A stretch of 64,000 nt of DNA from a virus. Lineage: Duplodnaviria; Heunggongvirae; Uroviricota; Caudoviricetes. This document shows positions 45,596 through 62,149 of this stretch, piece by piece (positions within the stretch are counted from its first letter, which is position 1; every line of letters begins with the position of its first letter). The DNA lies in the IMG/VR virus record IMGVR_UViG_3300037484_000445, positions 323,863-387,862 of that record; one strand, written 5' to 3'. Both the position numbers and the translations under genes were made by a program. The notes below the pieces were generated by a model. The model worked only from the letters and a program-made list of their open reading frames with translations, searched no databases and had not been told where the DNA came from.

Positions 45596-46271
45596 GTGAG
45601 AAGAGCTAAAGGACTCGGTTCATAAGGTGACGCCGTCCTAATCGAGTTACTCACCAGGGACAAGGCGTGAGAAGAGCTAAAGGACTCGGTTCATAAGGTG
45701 ACACTCGTCCTCGTCGAGACCCCAGTCCTCCTCCTCGTTGTGAGAAGAGCTAAAGGACTCGGTTCATAAGGTGACTGGCCGTTCCGTTGTGATAGATCCA
45801 TTGGTAGATAGGTGAGAAGAGCTAAAGGACTCGGTTCATAAGGTGACTACTCAGTCTCAGTCTGACCCTTGAGGATGGCAGTAGGTGAGGAGAGCTAAAG
45901 GATTCGGTTCATAAGGTGACGGGGCACGACCTATAGCGTGTACTGGTAGGGGTGTGAGGGGAGCTAAAGGACTCGGTTCATAAGGTGACTCGTGCTTCGT
46001 GATCTCCCCGATTGGCGAAGAAGGGTGAGAAGAGCTAAAGGATTCGGTTCATAGGATGACGACCAACCAACGCTGTCATGGCTATCGTGTTGGCAGTGAG
46101 AAGAGCTAAAGGGTCCGGTTCATAAGATGACTGCTCAGTGTCACCACTGTTCTGGCAAGTTTGAGGTGAGAAAAGCTAAAGGATTCGGTTCATAAGGTGA
46201 CGAGTCTCCGACCACTGCGGTTCCAGCTCTTGTAGGTGAGAAGAGCTAAAGGACTCGATTCGTAAGGTGAC
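45596..46271 (-). CRISPR. CRISPR array, 10 repeats / 9 spacers
   Basis: 36-nt repeats start at 45596, 45667, 45740, 45812, 45885, 45954, 46025, 46096, 46166 and 46236; minus-strand consensus GTCACCTTATGAACCGAGTCCTTTAGCTCTTCTCAC; unique spacers of 33-37 nt. Strand inferred from the anti-repeat and promoter. Confidence 0.98.
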
Positions 46272-46300
46272 TGGGTACTGCAACATCTGATGGACTCGAC

Positions 46301-52263: not shown

Positions 52264-52551
52264 CTATCGAATCAAAAAGTAGGTGGTGCCGGCGGGAACA
52301 AGGGTTTGGAATGCGGGGTGGCTCCCAGGTGGGAGTGGTTTTTGGGTGATGGCCTCGACGGACTGGACGGACTGGACCGGCGAAGTATCATAGGATCCCC
52401 TGTTCCTCGTAGAAGACAGGGCAATCCCCATGAGGCCTAAGGCGCGTGTACAGCGCCGTCCTGTCCGTCCCCGTTCCTCGTGGAAGACAGGGCAATCCCC
52501 GTGGGTAGCGGTTAGGGTAGCAATGGCACGGGAGAGTTCGCTGGCTAGCAT
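52264..52551 (-). CDS. Hypothetical protein
   Basis: GGTGTA 12 nt upstream; contains an out-of-frame 28-nt repeat. Confidence 0.55.
   Translation of the reverse strand: MLASELSRAIATLTATHGDCPVFHEERGRTGRRCTRALGLMGIALSSTRNRGSYDTSPVQSVQSVEAITQKPLPPGSHPAFQTLVPAGTTYFLIR
52402..52500. repeat. 28-nt direct repeat pair, period 71
   Basis: GTTCCTCGT(A/G)GAAGACAGGGCAATCCCC at 52402 and 52473. Confidence 0.9.
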
Positions 52552-53312: not shown

Positions 53313-53348
53313 GTGAGGAGAGCTAAAGGATTCGATTCATAAAGTGAC
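53313..53348 (-). CRISPR. Solo copy of the IscB array repeat
   Basis: Plus strand GTGAGGAGAGCTAAAGGATTCGATTCATAAAGTGAC, 32/36 identical to consensus, in an intergenic region. Confidence 0.88.
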
Positions 53349-53729: not shown

Positions 53730-53866
53730 GGTCGTACCCCTTTGGTTGGCCCGGATAGATACGTGGGGAACGAGTGGTCCCTTAATGGGATTATATGAGG
53801 GGTCGGACGGTGGTCCTAATAGCAGGCAAGGCTTAAGGTTCGAGGCACTTTGGCCGTACTATATGC

Positions 53867-53971
53867 ATGGACGAAGCAGATCTTACACCGGAAGAAGAGA
53901 GTCTCCTAGCCGAGCTCGAAGATCAGGACGATTCTGAGGTCGTTGACAAGCGGACCTCAGAAAGGGCTTAA
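53867..53971 (+). CDS. Tiny acidic peptide (34 aa, not in ORF track)
   Basis: Class I promoter then MDEADLTPEEESLLAELEDQDDSEVVDKRTSERA. Confidence 0.5.
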   Translation: MDEADLTPEEESLLAELEDQDDSEVVDKRTSERA

Positions 53972-54004
53972 GCTTTTCGAGGGCCGCCTCGTATCTATTT
54001 ACAG

Positions 54005-54170
54005 AAAGCAGCGGGTCATATGGCCTCACTCGAGAGGACAACCCCGCTGGAATAGGGCCGCTTTGGAGGGGTCTGTCCCGTGATTTTTGGGGGAGTTGAC
54101 AGATCTCCCCGAAGCCGGGCCTACTCCGCCGGGGGTCAGCACCTCTGTGGTGCGAGTTCCCGTCGCTTAT
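54005..54170. ncRNA. Rod-like structured element, copy 1
   Basis: Long imperfect inverted repeat between convergent class I promoters; homologous to 59753-59923. Confidence 0.6.
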
Positions 54171-54208
54171 AGGAGTAGATACGAGGGGAAGGGGCGGAAG
54201 ATTAAGGG

Positions 54209-54547
54209 CTATTTCAAGCCAAACTTCAGGTAGATCCTGTTTGCTTCGTCGTAGGCTTGGCTCAACTCTTTGATGGCCTCTTCCACGGCGTCGATGGCTT
54301 TTTCCAGGAACTCCCCTTGCTGTTCGGGGGCGTACTTGCTCATGCCCTCTAGCTGGGCTACGTCAGGGTCCTGAGCGGCCATCTTCTTGATGGCTTCTAT
54401 GGCTACCTTGGCCTGCCGAACCCGCTTCAGGTTGGAGTCTAGGGCATCTACGGCGGCCACAATCTTCATGAAGTGCGGACCATAGCCACCGCCGGCCGTC
54501 CTTGTTTGCTTGACCCTGGAGACCAACTTTTTGGCTGAAGCGCTCAT
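54209..54547 (-). CDS. Helical hypothetical protein
   Basis: 112 aa. Confidence 0.7.
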   Translation of the reverse strand: MSASAKKLVSRVKQTRTAGGGYGPHFMKIVAAVDALDSNLKRVRQAKVAIEAIKKMAAQDPDVAQLEGMSKYAPEQQGEFLEKAIDAVEEAIKELSQAYDEANRIYLKFGLK

Positions 54548-54573
54548 ATACCCTAGGGGTGGATATAAGAAGG

Positions 54574-54819
54574 TTACTTCTTAGGTGGTTCGTTGGCGAG
54601 GGTAGTGACACGAGCCCAGCCGGCGGCGGTCAAGATGGCCTCATGGTACGGGCCGAAGAGAGTTTTCGTGCAGTGGAGGGTCAAGAAGGCTTGGCGTTCG
54701 AGTGCTTTGGCCGTGCGGAGCTCGCCCTTACGGATCTCCACACGCCTGTTGCCGGTGCCGGCAACAGTACCCGCGAGGGCTTTCAAGAGGGTTTCTTGGG
54801 GGTTGGTCAGCTTGGCCAT
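54574..54819 (-). CDS. Small HTH-like early protein
   Basis: MAKLTNPQ...; class I promoter; similar to 55967-56188. Confidence 0.75.
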   Translation of the reverse strand: MAKLTNPQETLLKALAGTVAGTGNRRVEIRKGELRTAKALERQAFLTLHCTKTLFGPYHEAILTAAGWARVTTLANEPPKK

Positions 54820-55077
54820 GGGATTAGTACGAAGGGGAGGATCAGAAGATTAAGGTCCTTTTGGCTCTATTTTTGAGCGTTCTGCCTTACGACACCGACG
54901 TCCATCGCTACGATCATGATCGAATAGGGGGTGGGGACCTTTCGAACCTGGGGTATACCAGCCTTCGGTGCCACAATGGGGGCATTTCCAGCGTGTTTGA
55001 TGGACCTTGCGGGTCATTTGAAGGCACTTCCGATGAGGAAACCGAGGACTCCGAACGCTATTCCGAGCCAGAAGGGC

Positions 55078-55284
55078 TTAGATCCGATCGTATTCGTAGC
55101 CTTTTTCGTCACTTGTGACCGTGGCATAAGGTAGGTCCTTGACTGTGAGGGTGATGCTCCGGCCGGGCTTGGCATCGAGGAAGGCTACGGCGCTTGCTAC
55201 AGCGGCTTCTCGTGCCTTTGGGAGGTGTTTTTCGGCTCGCCACCGGTTCCAGTCGGCCTTGGGGATCTTTCGTCTCGCTGGCAT
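55078..55284 (-). CDS. Small hypothetical protein
   Basis: 68 aa. Confidence 0.55.
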   Translation of the reverse strand: MPARRKIPKADWNRWRAEKHLPKAREAAVASAVAFLDAKPGRSITLTVKDLPYATVTSDEKGYEYDRI

Positions 55285-55394
55285 GGTCGTCTTTCAGTGA
55301 TGGGTTTGTGGGTCAGCCGTTGTCGGAAGCACTCCCTTCCGGCTTCAAGATCGCTCTCGAGTGCTCCACAGTGAGGGCAGATAGCACTGGTCAT
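55197..55394 (-). CDS. Small CxxC protein
   Basis: CPHC; overlaps the downstream ORF. Confidence 0.45.
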   Translation of the reverse strand: MTSAICPHCGALESDLEAGRECFRQRLTHKPITERRPCQRDERSPRPTGTGGEPKNTSQRHEKPL

Positions 55395-55397
55395 CTT

Positions 55398-55718
55398 TCA
55401 GAAGCTATAGTCGTGATACTTGCGGCGAACGCCTACTTGGAAGCGGGAAGCTTCGGGGACGATCTTGGGGGCCTTTACGCGCCACTCGCCGTTCTTCCGA
55501 AGGGTGATGGTCAAGATCTTGCCGTTTGGGTCGGCTTCGTAGTCGTACGACTGGGTTTCGCTCATGCCGTTAGTATCGGTGCGGGTGGCCTTATCCTCTT
55601 GGATGCGGAGGGTTTTGGGGTTGATGACCTCAATCACCGTGTAGGGGTGGCGATCGGTATAACCGAGACCGGTGACGCCCATACCAACAACCGGGACGAC
55701 AGTTTCTTCGTTTGGCAT
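55398..55718 (-). CDS. Phage hypothetical protein (paralog of 31142-31486)
   Basis: Shared motifs; class I promoter. Confidence 0.8.
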   Translation of the reverse strand: MPNEETVVPVVGMGVTGLGYTDRHPYTVIEVINPKTLRIQEDKATRTDTNGMSETQSYDYEADPNGKILTITLRKNGEWRVKAPKIVPEASRFQVGVRRKYHDYSF

Positions 55719-55749
55719 GAGGATAGATACGGGGTGAAGGCGTGAGAAG

Positions 55750-55959
55750 TTAAGACCTTGGTTCGGGGAGGAAGTCCACTCGAAGGGTGAGGGAGCAATC
55801 GGTGCAAAGGGACGCCCATCTGGCGTTGTAGGAGCCTGGGAGGGCGGTTCGGTACCACTTGACGTAGTGAACGGCCTTTGCCGGTTCTTTACGGCAGCTC
55901 TGGCACGTCTTGGCGAGGGGTGGCTTACGCTTCTGAGGGGGAATGAAACGCCACTTCAT
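55750..55959 (-). CDS. Small Zn-finger-like protein
   Basis: CQSC...CTDC. Confidence 0.6.
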   Translation of the reverse strand: MKWRFIPPQKRKPPLAKTCQSCRKEPAKAVHYVKWYRTALPGSYNARWASLCTDCSLTLRVDFLPEPRS

Positions 55960-55966
55960 GGGGTAG

Positions 55967-56188
55967 TTAGGGCTCGTCAGGATGTTTGACGGCTTCGGCT
56001 TCCCCTTCGGGCGTGGGAACCAAGATCAAAGTGAACTTGTCATCATTAGTGACCTTCACGAGGCCAAGCTCAACGAGCTTCTGAGCCGGCTTGTAGTTCG
56101 TGACGCAGGTGAACTTCCGAAACCCCTTGACGTGGGTGTCGACGATCTCTTTGAGCGTTCGGGCCTGGGCTGCAGTAAGCTTTGCCAT
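55967..56188 (-). CDS. Small HTH-like early protein
   Basis: MAKLTAAQ...KLVELGLV; class I promoter. Confidence 0.75.
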   Translation of the reverse strand: MAKLTAAQARTLKEIVDTHVKGFRKFTCVTNYKPAQKLVELGLVKVTNDDKFTLILVPTPEGEAEAVKHPDEP

Positions 56189-56219
56189 GGGGGTAGATAC
56201 GGGGTTGGGCGTGGGAGAG

Positions 56220-56369
56220 TTAAGGGTTACTCACGGGTTCGACGGGGGAGAGCTCGCAGGTGTGAACGAGCTCGGCATCGACTTCTTCGTCGGTTATGTC
56301 GACCTCATCGACAATTACGATGGCCTCGGGGTCGTCCCACACGTTCGGGTGTAGCACTATTTGGTTCAT
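56220..56369 (-). CDS. Small acidic protein (49 aa, not in ORF track)
   Basis: GGTGTA 10 nt upstream; MNQIVLHPNVWDDPEAIVIVDEVDITDEEVD... Confidence 0.6.
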   Translation of the reverse strand: MNQIVLHPNVWDDPEAIVIVDEVDITDEEVDAELVHTCELSPVEPVSNP

Positions 56370-56402
56370 TGGCCGTACATACACCGACTAGGCCACGTCC
56401 GT

Positions 56403-56566
56403 TCAAAAGCGGAGAGCCCCTCCCGAAAGGAAACGGGAGGGGCTCTATCCTTCAATGTCTCACCACTGAGGAACCAGGTCATGCCTAACCTGAAGCGTAC
56501 CCCTACGCTTAGCAGTGGTGAGATATCGAGTGAGGTATCTGTTGCGGTATATCAACCTCACACACC
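56403..56566 (-). ncRNA. Structured ncRNA with intrinsic terminator
   Basis: Class I promoter 56596-56567, four helices, then a 13-bp hairpin followed by TTTT. Confidence 0.65.
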
Positions 56567-56612
56567 CTAATACGGATGAAGGGGTGGGGGAGTTAAGGGG
56601 GAACGTGCGAGG

Positions 56613-56801
56613 TTAAGAGTCTTCGCTGAGGACCTCTAGTTCTTCAGGAGTGAGGGGCGCATTCGAGATGATGAAGCCAAAGCCGTCTGAGCCTTCAAAG
56701 AGGGGGTCACTATAAAGATGAAGGCCAAAAGGTTTGAGGGCTTTCTCGAGGTTCTCCTTAGAAGGTCCCCGTTTCCAATCCCAATGAATGCTTGAATGCA
56801 T
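56613..56801 (-). CDS. Small phage hypothetical protein
   Basis: GGTGTA motif upstream. Confidence 0.65.
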   Translation of the reverse strand: MHSSIHWDWKRGPSKENLEKALKPFGLHLYSDPLFEGSDGFGFIISNAPLTPEELEVLSEDS

Positions 56802-56962
56802 GTGGGTAGCTTACACCGGGGCGTTGCCGCCATCAGGGCAAAGATCTGGCTTTAAAGTGGATCCGAAAACGTGGCTTTTCGGACTTCGTTTCACGCACAA
56901 GGAATTTAGGTCTAGGTCTTAACCTCTAGCTCCCCCGTCTCGTACTAACCACATACTCCGAT

Positions 56963-57007
56963 AACCAAGAAGCCGGGACCAAGCAACAAGGGCCCGGCTT
57001 CTTGGTT
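56963..57007. terminator. 15-bp perfect hairpin
   Basis: AACCAAGAAGCCGGG / CCCGGCTTCTTGGTT. Confidence 0.7.
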
Positions 57008-57014
57008 TAAGCCT

Positions 57015-57770
57015 TCAGGTACTTCGCGCTCCCATGATCGATTCAAGTATGTCCGTATGGTATGCCCCTACGAGACCAAATCGAGGGTCAAGCACCTTTT
57101 GGATGGGGTAGCCACTCTGTTCAGAATCCCTTGTAGCTCGCTTCCCAAGGCTAGCGGCCTTGGGAAGCGAAAGCTTCATCCCGAGGATTTTAGACCAAGC
57201 CAAGATCGTGTAGAACTCGGGATCAGGCTGTCGATGCTCTTCTAACTGGGTCACCCGCTCTTCGACATTGGCGTGAGCCAGCCTGAGAGCTACTTGTTCG
57301 TCCCGGAGTCGCACAAACTCTCGAGAGATGGCAAGAGCCGTTTCCGCTTGAGCAATCAGAGGGTCGACAGAGAGAGTTATCTGCTGGGCCAAACGTCTCT
57401 CAAGTTCCTTGTGTGCCTTGATCAGCTGAACGGTCAGTTTATTGGCAATAGGTAACTCCGACTTGCTAATCAAGTACTTGGCTTGTTCGACGTTGTAGAG
57501 GGGCATTTGTACAATACGTGTTACAGCACTAGCACTCACTGAAATCCCCGTCGTGGGGACTTCGCCGAATTCATTGAGAAATTCAGTATGTCTGCTAGCT
57601 AGCTCCTCCAATTTGCTACGTTTAGCGTATCCCAGCTTCGAGGCCAATAACTCGCTAGTGATCCGCAGTTCTTGATTTTGGTCAACGTGGAATTCAAAGC
57701 CGTCTACGGGGATTATCTGGTTCATGTCGGCCCGTACACCGAGGGGCCCGAAAGCAAACCTCGTTTTCAC
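57015..57770 (-). CDS. Phage antirepressor-like protein
   Basis: ITSELLASKLGY...YNVEQAKYL; C-terminal DPRFGLVGAY. Confidence 0.7.
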   Translation of the reverse strand: MKTRFAFGPLGVRADMNQIIPVDGFEFHVDQNQELRITSELLASKLGYAKRSKLEELASRHTEFLNEFGEVPTTGISVSASAVTRIVQMPLYNVEQAKYLISKSELPIANKLTVQLIKAHKELERRLAQQITLSVDPLIAQAETALAISREFVRLRDEQVALRLAHANVEERVTQLEEHRQPDPEFYTILAWSKILGMKLSLPKAASLGKRATRDSEQSGYPIQKVLDPRFGLVGAYHTDILESIMGARST

Positions 57771-57818
57771 CCTTAACCTTTCCGTCCTCCCCCTCGTACT
57801 ATCATCATGCTGATTGAA

Positions 57819-57935
57819 GCTCCCCTAACGTAAGAGGTCGATTCCTCAGAGGGAGCGTACCGAGGCCAGCGGACGATAGTAAAGTCTCAGAAGCAATGCC
57901 TTGGTGTTCGGGTTCGATTCCCGGTGGGAGTTTCA
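57819..57935 (+). ncRNA. tRNA-like cloverleaf with enlarged D and anticodon loops
   Basis: Acceptor GCTCCCC/TGGGAGT, T8A9, D stem ACGT/GCGT, stem CCGAGGC/GCCTTGG, T arm TCGGG-TTCGATT-CCCGG; no canonical anticodon loop. Confidence 0.6.
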
Positions 57936-58039
57936 AGCAGCACCGACACCTCGGAAAGACGGGGAGTGTCCACTACCTCAGTGTGGAGGGATAGCAACGC
58001 CTAGTTGCCAGTAAACGTCCGAACCCGAAGCAAGACACC

Positions 58040-58222
58040 ATGTCAAACACCGCCAAAAAGATTGCAGCCTGGAAGCACAACGAGGCTGGTTCGTTCAGCA
58101 CACGGTCCTTCGCTCACGGTTATCGCTCCTACATGCCCAAGAGGGCTCAGAAGGCTAAGCGCAACGTTCGTCGCTTGGCGGACGTGAAAGAAGCTCGCCT
58201 GGCCTGGAAAGAAGTCTACTGA
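58040..58222 (+). CDS. Small basic protein
   Basis: 60 aa. Confidence 0.6.
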   Translation: MSNTAKKIAAWKHNEAGSFSTRSFAHGYRSYMPKRAQKAKRNVRRLADVKEARLAWKEVY

Positions 58223-58224
58223 CC

Positions 58225-58452
58225 ATGCAACTCAAGACCGTCCCAGACTACGACAACAACCACCCAAGGTGCTTCGTGCTGGTCCAGGATGGTATGTACG
58301 GCCCTTGGAAGCTCCGAGACGAGCTAGGCATCATGACCTTTCCAACCCTAGCCAGAGTGTTCCTTACGCTCGGTGGGATGATTGAGTGGGGTCGCTGGTC
58401 GGAAGAGTCCCAAACGTGGATCAGAGACATGAACGAGGGGAAGGGGATTTAG
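58225..58452 (+). CDS. Hypothetical protein
   Basis: 75 aa. Confidence 0.6.
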   Translation: MQLKTVPDYDNNHPRCFVLVQDGMYGPWKLRDELGIMTFPTLARVFLTLGGMIEWGRWSEESQTWIRDMNEGKGI

Positions 58453-58488
58453 CCCTTAACCCCCAAGTCAGCCGGACGTAAAGGAAAT

Positions 58489-58767
58489 ATGGACCAAGCT
58501 GTCACGTTCCCCCTAGGACGCCTCGTCATGACCCCCGGGGCAGAGGCCACGTTCGACGAGAAGACGCGTACAAGGTGCCTCCAACGGCACGCAAAGGGCG
58601 ATTGGGGTGAGGGTCTCGATCCCGAAGACGTAGCGACCAACAACGAAGCCGTTCGAAGCAACGGACGCCTTCTGTCTTGCTACAACATCGAGGACAAGGG
58701 GGATCTCTGGATCATAAGCGAGGCCGACCGTTCAGTTACAACCCTATTGCTCCCGAGCGAGTACTGA
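58489..58767 (+). CDS. Conserved plasmid/phage hypothetical protein
   Basis: FPLGRLVMTPGA...RHAKGDWG...IISEADRSVTTLLLPSEY. Confidence 0.85.
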   Translation: MDQAVTFPLGRLVMTPGAEATFDEKTRTRCLQRHAKGDWGEGLDPEDVATNNEAVRSNGRLLSCYNIEDKGDLWIISEADRSVTTLLLPSEY

Positions 58768-58780
58768 AAGAAGGCCCTTC

Positions 58781-59389
58781 GTGCGAGTCAAAAGTCACCC
58801 GGCATACCCCTTGGCTTGGCCCGAGGGCTGGAAGAGGACCCTTCCAAATAAACGGTCTAGAAATCTACGATACCGAATCTCCTTGAAGCAAGCTCTAAAC
58901 GAGCTCCTAGAAGAGCTTCGTAAGATGGTTGGGAACTTGAAGTATGCTGTCATTAGCAGCAATATCCCTATAAAGAGAGATGGTAACCCCTACATCACAG
59001 GGCATTCCATTAAGCCCAAGGATCCTGGCGTAGCCGTCTACTGGTATGACGTCACTGCCAAGACGGAAAGGGTTATTGCGTGTGATGCTTGGGTAGAGGC
59101 CCGAGAGAACATTCGGGCCCTTGCTTTGGCCCTAAGGGCTCTAAGACAGCTCGAACGTTGTAAGGCCACAGAGATCCTTGATCGGGCCTTCTCTGGGTTT
59201 GCTGCCCTAACGGACGGGCAAGAACCCTGGTGGGTCGTGCTGGGTGTAGAGCAAGGATCTTCCCCAGCAGTTATCAAGGATACCTATCATATTTTGGCCA
59301 AGACTCATCATCCAGATGTTGGCGGAGACCATGTTCAAATGGTCAAAATCAGCAAAGCCTATCAAGAGGCCCTAGAAGGTAACCCTTAA
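58781..59389 (+). CDS. Phage J-domain-containing protein
   Basis: YPLAWPEGWKRT; VISSN; DPGVAVYW; WWVVLGV...LAKTHHPDVGG (HPD). Confidence 0.85.
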   Translation: MRVKSHPAYPLAWPEGWKRTLPNKRSRNLRYRISLKQALNELLEELRKMVGNLKYAVISSNIPIKRDGNPYITGHSIKPKDPGVAVYWYDVTAKTERVIACDAWVEARENIRALALALRALRQLERCKATEILDRAFSGFAALTDGQEPWWVVLGVEQGSSPAVIKDTYHILAKTHHPDVGGDHVQMVKISKAYQEALEGNP

Positions 59390-59420
59390 GATTCGAGGGC
59401 TGGCCCTCGTACTATACATC

Positions 59421-59528
59421 AAGAGCACGAACTACCGGTCCTGGTCCTGGAACTGTTTAGCAGCCTGCACGTGTGAAGCGTAAGGGGATGGCCGGAGTGG
59501 TTCAGAGGTCGCAACTCTAAGTGCTCTT
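59421..59528 (+). ncRNA. Small structured RNA candidate
   Basis: Class I promoter at 59385; closing stem AAGAGCAC/GTGCTCTT; internal hairpins; no ORF. Confidence 0.45.
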
Positions 59529-59560
59529 AACTTCCAACCCACACCTAACGTACTATCATC

Positions 59561-59722
59561 ATGGACACCGAAGACACCTCCTTTGCTCGTAGGATCCAGC
59601 AGATTGCACAGCTTCTGGCCTACAAGCAGGACACTTCGAGCTTCGATCCCCTTGAGGTAGCCGCCGCCAGGATGTATCTGAAGGACCAAGAGACCCACGA
59701 AGAAATCGAAAGTCACCCTTAA
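59561..59722 (+). CDS. Small protein (53 aa, not in ORF track)
   Basis: Class I promoter TTAACT-N18-TACTAT-N4-ATG. Confidence 0.65.
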   Translation: MDTEDTSFARRIQQIAQLLAYKQDTSSFDPLEVAAARMYLKDQETHEEIESHP

Positions 59723-59752
59723 TCTTCGACGCCCACCCTTCGTACTATCACT

Positions 59753-59923
59753 ATAAAGCGAGAGGCTAAGGGCTCCGAAAGGCGGAGCCGGAACGCCCTC
59801 GGGAGGCCCACGGGTTCGGAGGGATCTGCCCACATTTTTGGGATCGTGTGGGCAGATCCCTCCGAAGCGTGCCTTCTCCGCCGGGGGTGTCCTCTCAGTG
59901 AGGCCATGGTACCCGTCGCTTAT
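59753..59923. ncRNA. Rod-like structured element, copy 2
   Basis: 18-bp core stem; convergent class I promoters; homologous to 54005-54170. Confidence 0.6.
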
Positions 59924-59997
59924 GTTAGTAGTACGGTGCGAGGGTCCTAAAGGTTAAGGGCCCTTCACACTAAATTTAGGTCTTGGAGGGAAGATAC

Positions 59998-60430: not shown

Positions 60431-60455
60431 AAGGATAATACGGTCAGAACCCCGT

Positions 60456-60477
60456 GAAGCTTAAGGCCTTAAGCTTC
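60456..60477. promoter_or_regulatory. Back-to-back class I -35 palindrome
   Basis: GAAGCTTAAGGCCTTAAGCTTC, perfect 22-nt palindrome serving divergent genes. Confidence 0.7.
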
Positions 60478-60503
60478 GGCCGTCCTCTTCCGTATCAAGC
60501 TCC

Positions 60504-61442: not shown

Positions 61443-62149
61443 TCATCCAAGTCTAGATCTTCGAAGAACTTGGCATCCGAGTCCTCTTCATCGGAGCCGG
61501 GATCTTCGCTCGGACGCTCGGGAACTTCGTTCTCAAGCACGCTATCCGCCGAGGGATCTGGCCTATCCTCTGCCTCATAGTTCAAGGGCATTGGCACGAC
61601 CACGTCAGGGGCACGCTCGGGAAGCTTCGGAGCCGGGAAGTTCCACGTCCCGTCAGCCTCGGCCGCGATACGCCGGTCCTCGGCCATGCTCGTGAGGTCG
61701 TTCGGAATGAACTCTGGTTCTTTGGCCTTGAGATCGCGCTCGAACTCTTCCCCAGCTTGCTCAATTCGTGCAACTAGGCCCGGAGGGTGATTATCAGTGC
61801 TCTCTTGTACCATTGGTGATGAAGGGGGTAGAGTGTTACTGTTTGATACTGTTGGTGATGAGTTACCCTGTGTAGTAACGTTTAGTAATGTTGGTGATGA
61901 AGGGGGTAGAGTGTTACTGTTTGGTACATCACTGGTCACAACAGTAATACTAGGGGAAGTAGGGGGTGTAACAGTAACAATAGTGAGGTATTGTGATAAT
62001 GCGGCCTCGACCACATCAAACATCAACACACCGTCCTGAAAGGCACGTAGGCGTAACGCTCTGTGTAGTTGGTCCGGAATGGTACCTTTGATGGCTTTAC
62101 GGCCCTGGGGGGTGGAATGGGGCTTCTTGGACGGCTTGGTATCAGGCAT
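61439..62149 (-). CDS. RHH-like DNA-binding protein with S/T/P-rich repeat and acidic tail
   Basis: IKGTIPDQLHRALRLRAFQDGVLMFDVVEAALSQYL; GGTGTA 10 nt upstream. Confidence 0.7.
   Translation of the reverse strand: MPDTKPSKKPHSTPQGRKAIKGTIPDQLHRALRLRAFQDGVLMFDVVEAALSQYLTIVTVTPPTSPSITVVTSDVPNSNTLPPSSPTLLNVTTQGNSSPTVSNSNTLPPSSPMVQESTDNHPPGLVARIEQAGEEFERDLKAKEPEFIPNDLTSMAEDRRIAAEADGTWNFPAPKLPERAPDVVVPMPLNYEAEDRPDPSADSVLENEVPERPSEDPGSDEEDSDAKFFEDLDLDD
61813..61923. repeat. 33-nt direct repeats
   Basis: TTGGTGATGAAGGGGGTAGAGTGTTACTGTTTG at 61813 and 61891; partial copy at 61852. Confidence 0.9.

Follow-up and report, generated by a model that had tools for sequence, protein, structure and literature searches.

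Palindromic elements between inward-facing predicted promoters in a huge phage genome as candidate pairs of mutually antisense small-RNA genes

In Bacillus prophages, the type I toxin-antitoxin loci bsrG/SR4 and txpA/RatA are built as convergent cis-antisense pairs whose 3′ ends overlap. The put RNAs of phage HK022, of which there are two per genome, are about 70 nt long, consist of two helices, lie right after the early promoters and are conserved in both sequence and structure. The locus considered here belongs to a virus of the Caudoviricetes. The window, that is, the whole stretch of 64,000 nucleotides that was analysed (positions 323,863 to 387,862 of the IMG/VR record IMGVR_UViG_3300037484_000445), contains two homologous palindromic elements, e1 and e2, each enclosed by two predicted early promoters that face inward. 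Each element is most likely an undescribed small-RNA gene pair and not a decoy like 6S RNA. The reading favoured here, held with a little less than even confidence, is that two early small-RNA genes converge in each element and are antisense to one another; the fold-back of such a pair would act both as a two-way transcript end and as a recombination joint at the borders of a variable gene island. The elements and their promoters are as follows.

53968 to 53997, plus strand: left e1 promoter, with TTAAGC (53968-53973), an 18-nt spacer and TATCTA (53992-53997); position weight matrix (PWM) score 15.9; inferred start A 54003.
54003 to 54170: e1 palindrome, 168 nt between the inferred start sites.
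54176 to 54205, minus strand: right e1 promoter, with TTAATC (54205-54200), an 18-nt spacer and TATCTA (54181-54176); score 16.9; inferred start 54170.
59719 to 59747, plus strand: left e2 promoter; PWM score 28.3; start at about 59753.
59753 to 59923: e2 palindrome, homologous to e1 and 5,750 nt to its right.
59929 to 59957, minus strand: right e2 promoter; PWM score 27.8; start at about 59923.

Like bsrG/SR4 and txpA/RatA, the elements occur in a phage or prophage setting, have facing promoters over 150-200 nt and would give complementary transcripts (predicted here); the topology would also fit a small-ORF mRNA that ends in the overlap (ORF, open reading frame). Unlike those loci, both partners here are non-coding and there is no sequence relationship; the partners are paralogues of one another, and this is why the locus is palindromic. 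A type I toxin-antitoxin system was rejected, the products of the upstream ORFs being acidic and hydrophilic and not membrane toxins. With the put RNAs of HK022, the locus shares two conserved, promoter-proximal copies of a two-helix RNA of about 70 nt, but its paralogues are paired in inverted orientation, its e2 copy heads no co-directional operon, and there is no homology.

The promoter-early stem-loop (PeSL) cassette of T4-type phages, in which a terminator stem-loop is followed by a promoter within about 100 bp, exists in dozens of copies, one per gene (PMC2839356, PMC4122927). It resembles the present elements in combining a conserved early promoter with a stem-loop in a hyperplastic region of small orphan genes, where insertions and deletions are bounded by the elements. 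The difference is that the promoters here point into the structure, and that there are two elements (four modules) in 452 kb, with an invariant stretch of 35 nt. A PeSL cassette was therefore rejected: the order is reversed (promoter, then structure) and there are two elements only.

The preliminary description of this DNA had placed convergent promoters around the palindrome of e1, and every motif that it listed is found at its position. The rod-like palindrome is present too, with a length of 168 nt between the inferred starts and not about 166 nt, and the homologue that it had noticed 5.7 kb away is e2. The promoter boxes belong to a motif with the consensus CTTAAnnT-N15-CGTAyTA, which recurs in the right-hand third of the genome and has the start about 5 nt after it; the early promoter can also be written CTTAAsy-N18-CGTAyTA. 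Among the strict seed sites, 23 of 32 have an ATG 5-6 nt past the box, so that the motif marks the starts of leaderless mRNAs. With a weight matrix of two half-sites, the 452-kb genome gives 73 sites and shuffled versions of it give 1-6, so that the motif is more than chance; at strong sites, an ATG follows 4-7 nt downstream in 29 of 42. This early promoter motif is limited to about 170-436 kb of the genome, being densest at 377-385 kb, and the e2 boxes (27.8 and 28.3) are among the top-scoring ones. Promoter activity is predicted from this recurrence of the motif.

In the 452-kb genome, e1 and e2 are the only convergent promoter pairs. Two inward promoters with the full -35/-10 consensus and spacing are present in all 12 elements, counting those of related metagenomic contigs (numbered with the letter L; a and b after a number denote elements), and the left e1 promoter is conserved in L007, L012, L008, L009 and L006. 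The four e1 and e2 boxes are followed by AGAAAGC, AUAAGCG or AUAAAGC and never by AUG, so the products should be non-coding; element starts in general have AUA, AGA or ACA instead of AUG. The earlier statement that e1 is free of ORFs also stands, in that the ORFs overlapping it are short (46-52 aa) and unconserved, and a shared reading frame is impossible because a 1-nt indel separates the e1 and e2 types.

When the arms of the elements are aligned, each in its own direction of transcription, the same layout appears in every arm. The promoter comes first, then +1 A and AAGC; the helix P1 (7 bp) has the hairpin P2 between its two strands, and from the 3′ strand of P1, about 30 nt lead on to the middle of the palindrome. 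That is to say, each element is a tail-to-tail pair of modules, each made up of a promoter and an RNA of about 75-95 nt. In e1, the outer arms are AAAGCAGCGGG and CCCGTCGCTT, the middle arms CCCCGCTGGAATAGGGCC and GGCCTACTCCGCCGGGG, and the core arms GGAGGGGTCTGTC and GACAGATCTCCCC around the loop ATTTTTGGG. The modules of the window are listed below.

54003 to 54075, plus strand: e1 left arm, a diverged inverted copy of Family I, with P1 CAGCGGG/CCCGCUG and P2 CCUC/GAGG; covariance-model score 73 bits.
54076 to 54101: centre of the e1 palindrome, whose loop has a run T5 on the plus strand and A5 on the minus strand.
54102 to 54172, minus strand: e1 Family I module, the conserved core and best covariance-model match (80.9 bits).
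59752 to 59826, plus strand: e2 left arm, the "Family II" module, with P1 CGAG..GGC/GCC..CUCG and P2 GGCUCCG/CGGAGCC; 59.6 bits.
59855 to 59925, minus strand: e2 Family I module, of the e2 subtype ...GGAGAAGGCACGCUUCGG...; 73.4 bits.

The Family I module of e1 reads, from its 5′ end, AUAAGC, helix P1, hairpin P2, and an invariant stretch of 35 nt with GAUC at its end. This stretch has the form ACCCCCGGCGGAG(U/A)AGGC...CUUCGGGGAGAUC, and the module also has an A-rich loop; the sequence ACCCCCGGCGGAGUAGGCCCGGCUUCGGGGAGAUC is identical in the window copy w1, L009a, L008 and L006b, although between these phages the 312-aa protein next to it shares only 54-74% identity. Each of the two subtypes, e1 and e2, is kept from lineage to lineage, the e2 subtype occurring in L007, L012, L009, L006 and L022.

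A covariance model, R1, finds exactly four modules in the genome of the window and, in the other contigs, two for each element; these score 52-81 bits, while the next-best matches reach at most 16 bits; no match was found at the CRISPR or at an IscB guide scaffold. In helix P1, 85.7% of the cells are paired, and in five of the seven base pairs, both partners have changed (GC/AU, CG/GC). The covariation score of P1 is 0.264 against 0.162 in shuffles, it is reached by 0 of 500 shuffles, and every slid register scores lower; such compensatory changes point to selection at the RNA level. The two arms of L006b have different P1 helices (CGACGGG and CGAGAAG), each compensated within its own arm, which argues that selection acts on the fold of the module and not solely on pairing between the arms. 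The position of P2 holds unrelated stems, namely CACC/GGUG, CCUC/GAGG, UCUCUGCC/GGUAGAGA and GGCUCCG/CGGAGCC.

The RNA of the whole element also folds strongly. On the plus strand, the fold of e1 (53995-54180) has -86.4 kcal/mol and z = -4.1, and that of e2 has -99.9 kcal/mol and z = -5.8; in both cases, none of 200 shuffles reached such a value. The centre of the elements is a closed hairpin of 13-21 bp with a loop of 10-14 nt, the internal loops are unconserved, and a central run T4-5 is present in 10 of the 11 two-armed elements, L009a having TTT only.

The relatives were reached through homologues of two neighbouring proteins, one metagenome pattern scan added two contigs, and the elements in them were detected with nhmmer and the covariance model. 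Outside the window, elements are present in six more metagenomic phage contigs: two in L007, one and a half in L012, two in L009, one in L008, two in L006 (where the locus is inverted) and one in L022. The covariance-model search that had been proposed earlier thus recovers the modules beyond this genome, and conserved structure is found in the relatives, whose lack had been named as evidence against the element. The structured non-coding RNA that had been suggested holds in so far as the predicted transcripts are non-coding, structured and conserved in fold, but the rod as the conserved unit does not hold.

The distribution of the family is narrow. No module was found in L013-L016 and L024, whose 312-aa neighbour is 41-46% identical, nor in L023, a short contig with a partial match to that neighbour at 57% identity; in the loci scanned, such a promoter type was not found in L013, L015 and L016, and a comparable palindrome was not found in L013 and L015. 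As these more distant carriers of the 312-aa neighbour have no module, the family appears to be restricted to a narrow clade. The element was unmatched among INPHARED phage records in the distant mode of blastn, and pattern scans of IMG/VR gave 0 matches, as did protein-anchored scans with three neighbour proteins, in a searched set that may omit close kin of the window. In bacterial and archaeal species genomes, a 21-base Family I pattern gave 11 matches, which score 10-22 bits with the model and belong to no Rfam family; they are taken as chance because all of them lie in GC-rich coding DNA with unrelated flanks. In the 452-kb genome itself, blastn found no third copy of the element and no complementary site. 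Rfam, a search of which had been called for, gave zero matches at the gathering score over the whole window, and at E <= 10, e1 and e2 gave only chance-level microRNA and snoRNA matches and no 6S RNA. The literature searched on convergent promoters, palindromes and non-coding RNA of jumbo phages does not describe such an element. The RNA family is new, with no Rfam record and none in the searched literature; phage small RNAs, antisense pairs and promoter-hairpin cassettes are already known kinds, and it is the layout of inverted paralogues that is unusual.

The two arms of an element do not have the same fate. The arm opposite the Family I module is a diverged Family I copy in e1 and Family II in e2. 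In L009a, the central stem is degraded, and the middle of the opposite arm no longer pairs. In L012b, an element of the 457-kb contig L012, about 770 bp of other DNA stand in place of the left promoter and left arm of e2, and the breakpoint is the centre of the palindrome. This replacement DNA (L012, 8631-9401) has a possible 193-aa minus-strand ORF without Pfam match, a decayed remnant of a module, and a plus-strand early promoter followed only by an 8-codon ORF. The right module and its promoter are 95% identical there, and the RNA fold is ordinary (z = -0.67). The side hairpins move as well: the right-arm hairpin of the window copy w1 is found on the left arm of L009a, and its left-arm hairpin resembles the right-arm hairpin of the window copy w2. 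Such swaps indicate that the four modules recombine.

The rod itself is what the full-length RNA prefers in the majority of elements, its ends being paired with p = 0.7-1.0; the two arms of L006b instead fold separately. Between w2 and L007b, which come from sibling strains, both arms of the central stem have changed in a coordinated way, from GGAGGG/CCCUCC to GGGGAG/CUCCCC, and the rod seems partly still under selection. Of the two strands, the plus strand of the window, on which Family I is antisense, gives the stabler RNA in 9 of 10 elements; in its central stem, there are 14 G.U cells against 6 A.C, and one-sided changes mostly lead to G.U. This bias could come from a selected plus-strand rod, or from transcription-linked C-to-T drift in the less constrained arm. 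Since one arm is near-invariant and the other drifts or is replaced, the rod is a consequence of the inverted duplication of a module, with partial complementarity kept, and is not the conserved unit.

Both elements lie at junctions of converging flanking genes and bound a variable island. The features next to them are given here.

53867 to 53971, plus strand: small acidic ORF of 34 aa (MDEADLTPEEE...), with its own predicted promoter at 53833-53861.
54209 to 54547, minus strand: 112-aa gene that reads toward e1, with a weak, sub-threshold ZapA-like match.
54209 to 59722: variable island between e1 and e2, with small early genes and several predicted promoter-driven non-coding RNAs.
59561 to 59722, plus strand: small ORF of 53 aa (MDTEDTSFARR...), with its own predicted promoter at 59527-59555.

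The variable arm is always preceded by a small acidic ORF with its own predicted promoter, whose stop abuts the -35 box: the left e1 promoter has the stop TAA of the 34-aa ORF within its -35 TTAA, and the left e2 promoter has the stop codon of the 53-aa ORF within its -35 box. The C-terminal DDSEV(V/I)DKRTS of the 34-aa ORF is common to an ORF of L008, and the 53-aa ORF is 76-88% identical in L009 and L012. The 112-aa gene is kept in L008, L009 and L012 and is a different gene in L006. Within the island, the left half has minus-strand genes and the right half plus-strand genes, and the island takes up 5.7 kb in the window, against 7.1 kb in L007 and 12 kb in L006. The positions of the elements are syntenic in L006, L007, L009 and L012, their immediate neighbours differ, and the elements delimit what has been inserted, deleted or replaced from one relative to another. 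Because neighbouring genes vary at fixed elements, the elements can be regarded as joints of gene exchange.

Further strong copies of the early promoter without a start codon are found in the window at 56947-57010 (+), 59414-59520 (+) and 56403-56596 (-), and elsewhere in the genome at 278872 (+), 426783 (-) and 430712 (-); examples are ...CGTACTAaccacAUACUCCGAUAACC and ...CGTACTAtacatcAAGAGCACGAAC. The stretch between e1 and e2 thus seems unusually rich in predicted promoter-driven non-coding RNAs. A divergent pair of early promoters, 61 nt apart (window 60436-60497), serves a small minus-strand ORF and the conserved plus-strand gene of 312 aa; the sole other divergent pair is at genome 278803/278872.

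In the favoured reading, an early promoter at both ends of the element would fire inward, the same motif that puts an ATG at the start of protein genes. The functional RNA would be Family I, on the minus strand of the window and about 75-95 nt long, and the module on the other strand would be its inverted paralogue, free to drift while it remains complementary. The two transcripts would be perfect antisense partners across about 170 nt. A transcript that reads through would form the rod, with a GC-rich closing stem and then a U-rich tail, and rod and tail together may stop the transcripts of the flanking convergent genes from either side and protect their 3′ ends. The conserved modules would in addition serve as joints for swapping the neighbouring genes. 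In three of the four predicted transcripts of the window, UUUCUGU, UUUAUAGU or UUAUGUUA comes after the outer closing stem, but on the e1 plus strand no more than UUAUAGGA does; this U-rich tail is, on both strands, the complement of the AUAAAG start of the partner. The layout would resemble a two-way terminator, although a weak and atypical one.

Several points weigh against the convergent small-RNA pair. The firing of the promoters, the ends of the RNAs and the strand that matters are all deduced from the DNA sequence. The U-rich tails past the closing stem are modest, and weak on the e1 plus strand. A terminator scan found no canonical site of hairpin and T-run in e1 or e2, neither in the middle nor at the ends; its one match nearby is a 5-bp stem within the left e1 promoter, and the total for the region is at chance level (9 against 9.2 expected). 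In L012, one convergent gene pair has no such element, so the stop is not obligatory. No complementarity to the 35-nt stretch was found in the 452-kb phage genome, and in a small-RNA target scan of 42 early 5′ ends, shuffled queries formed duplexes at least as good as the best ones of the stretch. There are about five independent lineages, and the covariation statistics are accordingly inflated by relatedness. The opposite-strand RNA could be the selected one, because the rod is more stable there and G.U cells outnumber A.C cells. Finally, the conservation of the 35 nt far exceeds the needs of a terminator or an antisense partner; this invariance implies a specific partner and speaks more strongly than anything else against a role in structure or termination alone.

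Of the other explanations at the RNA level, two give the rod or the duplex itself the leading role. It is unlikely, in our view, that convergent early transcription deliberately yields a double-stranded RNA of 170 bp, or two blunt, end-paired rods with a 35-nt stretch for protein recognition, by which the phage, early in infection, would either trap an RNA-sensing or RNA-cutting defence factor of the host or set the moment at which the early island is switched off, by collision of polymerases and antisense pairing. The locus would then be a new kind of phage RNA locus. Somewhat more doubtful is a full-length rod RNA of about 170 nt that acts as an abundant, nuclease-resistant decoy or sponge for a protein, either RNA polymerase (like 6S RNA), an enzyme of the RNase III type or a host RNA-sensing defence protein (compare adenovirus VA RNA). 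Most elements have the rod as their minimum-energy fold, with paired ends and folding z of -4 to -6, one strand is consistently the stabler owing in part to G.U pairs, and the invariant stretch suggests a sequence-specific contact with a protein; against this, L012b has lost the rod and L009a has a degraded centre, both retaining the module, and the arms of L006b fold separately. With 6S RNA (RF00013 and relatives), to which the preliminary description had likened e1, the element shares a length of about 170-180 nt, paired ends and the rod shape. This likeness had to be given up, as neither 6S nor any other Rfam family matches even at E = 10, the centre is a closed hairpin and not a conserved bubble resembling an open promoter, predicted transcription is from two strands, and the rod is dispensable in one relative. 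Least probable of all is a cis-acting leader, in which Family I would modify its own polymerase in the manner of put and allow read-through into the leftward gene block. A conserved two-helix RNA in two promoter-proximal copies would suit it, and the e1 module does point into a minus-strand gene block of about 45 kb; the e2 module, however, faces about 2 kb of opposite-strand genes in every lineage, and the next minus-strand gene past e1 has its own predicted promoter. A put-like leader was thus rejected, only the e1 module heading a co-directional operon.

The remaining explanations are concerned with the DNA, or with transcript ends alone. The elements may be recombination linkers that bound a hyperplastic early-gene island and let co-infecting relatives exchange cassettes, as PeSL do; by analogy this is conceivable but improbable, about to the same degree as the deliberate double-stranded RNA. 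Gene content shifts at the borders while the elements stay (island of 5.7, 7.1 or 12 kb), side hairpins swap among arms and copies, the L012b breakpoint is at the palindrome centre, and PeSL crossovers were mapped within the stem-loop (PMC2839356). Recombination at conserved DNA is nevertheless expected under any function, and the compensation in P1, the fixed +1 geometry and the invariance of 35 nt are left unexplained; moreover, the PeSL stem-loop is upstream of the promoter and has dozens of copies, whereas here the structure is downstream and there are two elements. A plain two-way stop that also stabilises 3′ ends, with the inward boxes as barely active by-products, is distinctly improbable. 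Both copies stand between converging genes where other terminator-like sites are absent nearby, and, like bidirectional intrinsic terminators, they have a GC stem with A-rich 5′ and U-rich 3′ flanks on both strands; yet the stem encloses a structured RNA of about 150 nt, the U tracts are weak, and a canonical terminator-like site is absent at the centre and the ends. There are also promoters at the ends, complete in consensus and spacing in 12 of 12 elements and top-scoring in e2, and conservation is in excess, 35 invariant nucleotides being superfluous for a hairpin. An origin or priming site of replication, at which transcription coming in from the two sides would act by way of an R-loop or cruciform, is very improbable. 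Promoter-dependent origins exist in T4 and T7 and give a precedent; the cumulative GC skew has a local minimum at about 46-51 kb of the window, from which e1 is 3-8 kb and e2 9-14 kb away to the right, and the two elements flank the major point of divergence of gene orientation at about 57.8 kb. However, the minimum is away from the elements and tracks gene orientation, an AT-rich unwinding stretch and iterons are absent, the arms are too mismatched for easy extrusion of a cruciform, and compensation within single arms including G.U pairs, together with an arm that can be lost, points to RNA.

Two further candidates were rejected. A palindrome like a miniature inverted-repeat transposable element (MITE) or a repetitive extragenic palindromic (REP) sequence does not fit two copies per genome, syntenic in five lineages, with bacterial matches at chance level, and a retron msr-msd does not fit neighbours that are ORFs of 34-112 aa without a Pfam reverse-transcriptase domain.

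The window lies in a single contig of 451,925 bp, and the first 273 bp of this contig are repeated at its end, which suggests a circular assembly or terminal redundancy. The 452-kb genome has 48 tRNA genes clustered in about 20 kb and one transfer-messenger RNA (tmRNA) gene; a scan of the window for tRNA and tmRNA found none. A CRISPR array lies at window 45596-46283, and a lone copy of its 36-nt repeat at 53313-53348, about 650 nt to the left of e1, shows no visible link to e1. At 52398-52503, a 71-nt unit with a small palindrome CCCTGTTCC...GACAGGG stands twice in tandem; the sibling strain L007 seemingly has one copy, because the tblastx offset shifts by 71 nt, and the unit looks like a strain-variable non-coding repeat. 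To the right of e2, at 61813-61927, the 37-nt sequence TTGGTGATGAAGGGGGTAGAGTGTTACTGTTTGATAC is repeated 78 nt apart with 97% identity, and part of a third copy lies between the two.

Huge phages are known almost solely from metagenomes, and their regulatory RNAs are largely unmapped. The reach of the present family is limited to about five lineages of one clade, and its expression is predicted only. Within these bounds, the locus offers a defined RNA family that the model separates cleanly from everything else (52-81 against at most 16 bits). The conservation of the 35-nt stretch far above that of the surrounding proteins implies a specific binding partner. By the inverted duplication of the module, each copy would be the antisense of its partner and at the same time the likely stop for the transcript of that partner, and since the elements mark both borders of an island of gene exchange, they may also be useful for reading the evolution of these genomes.

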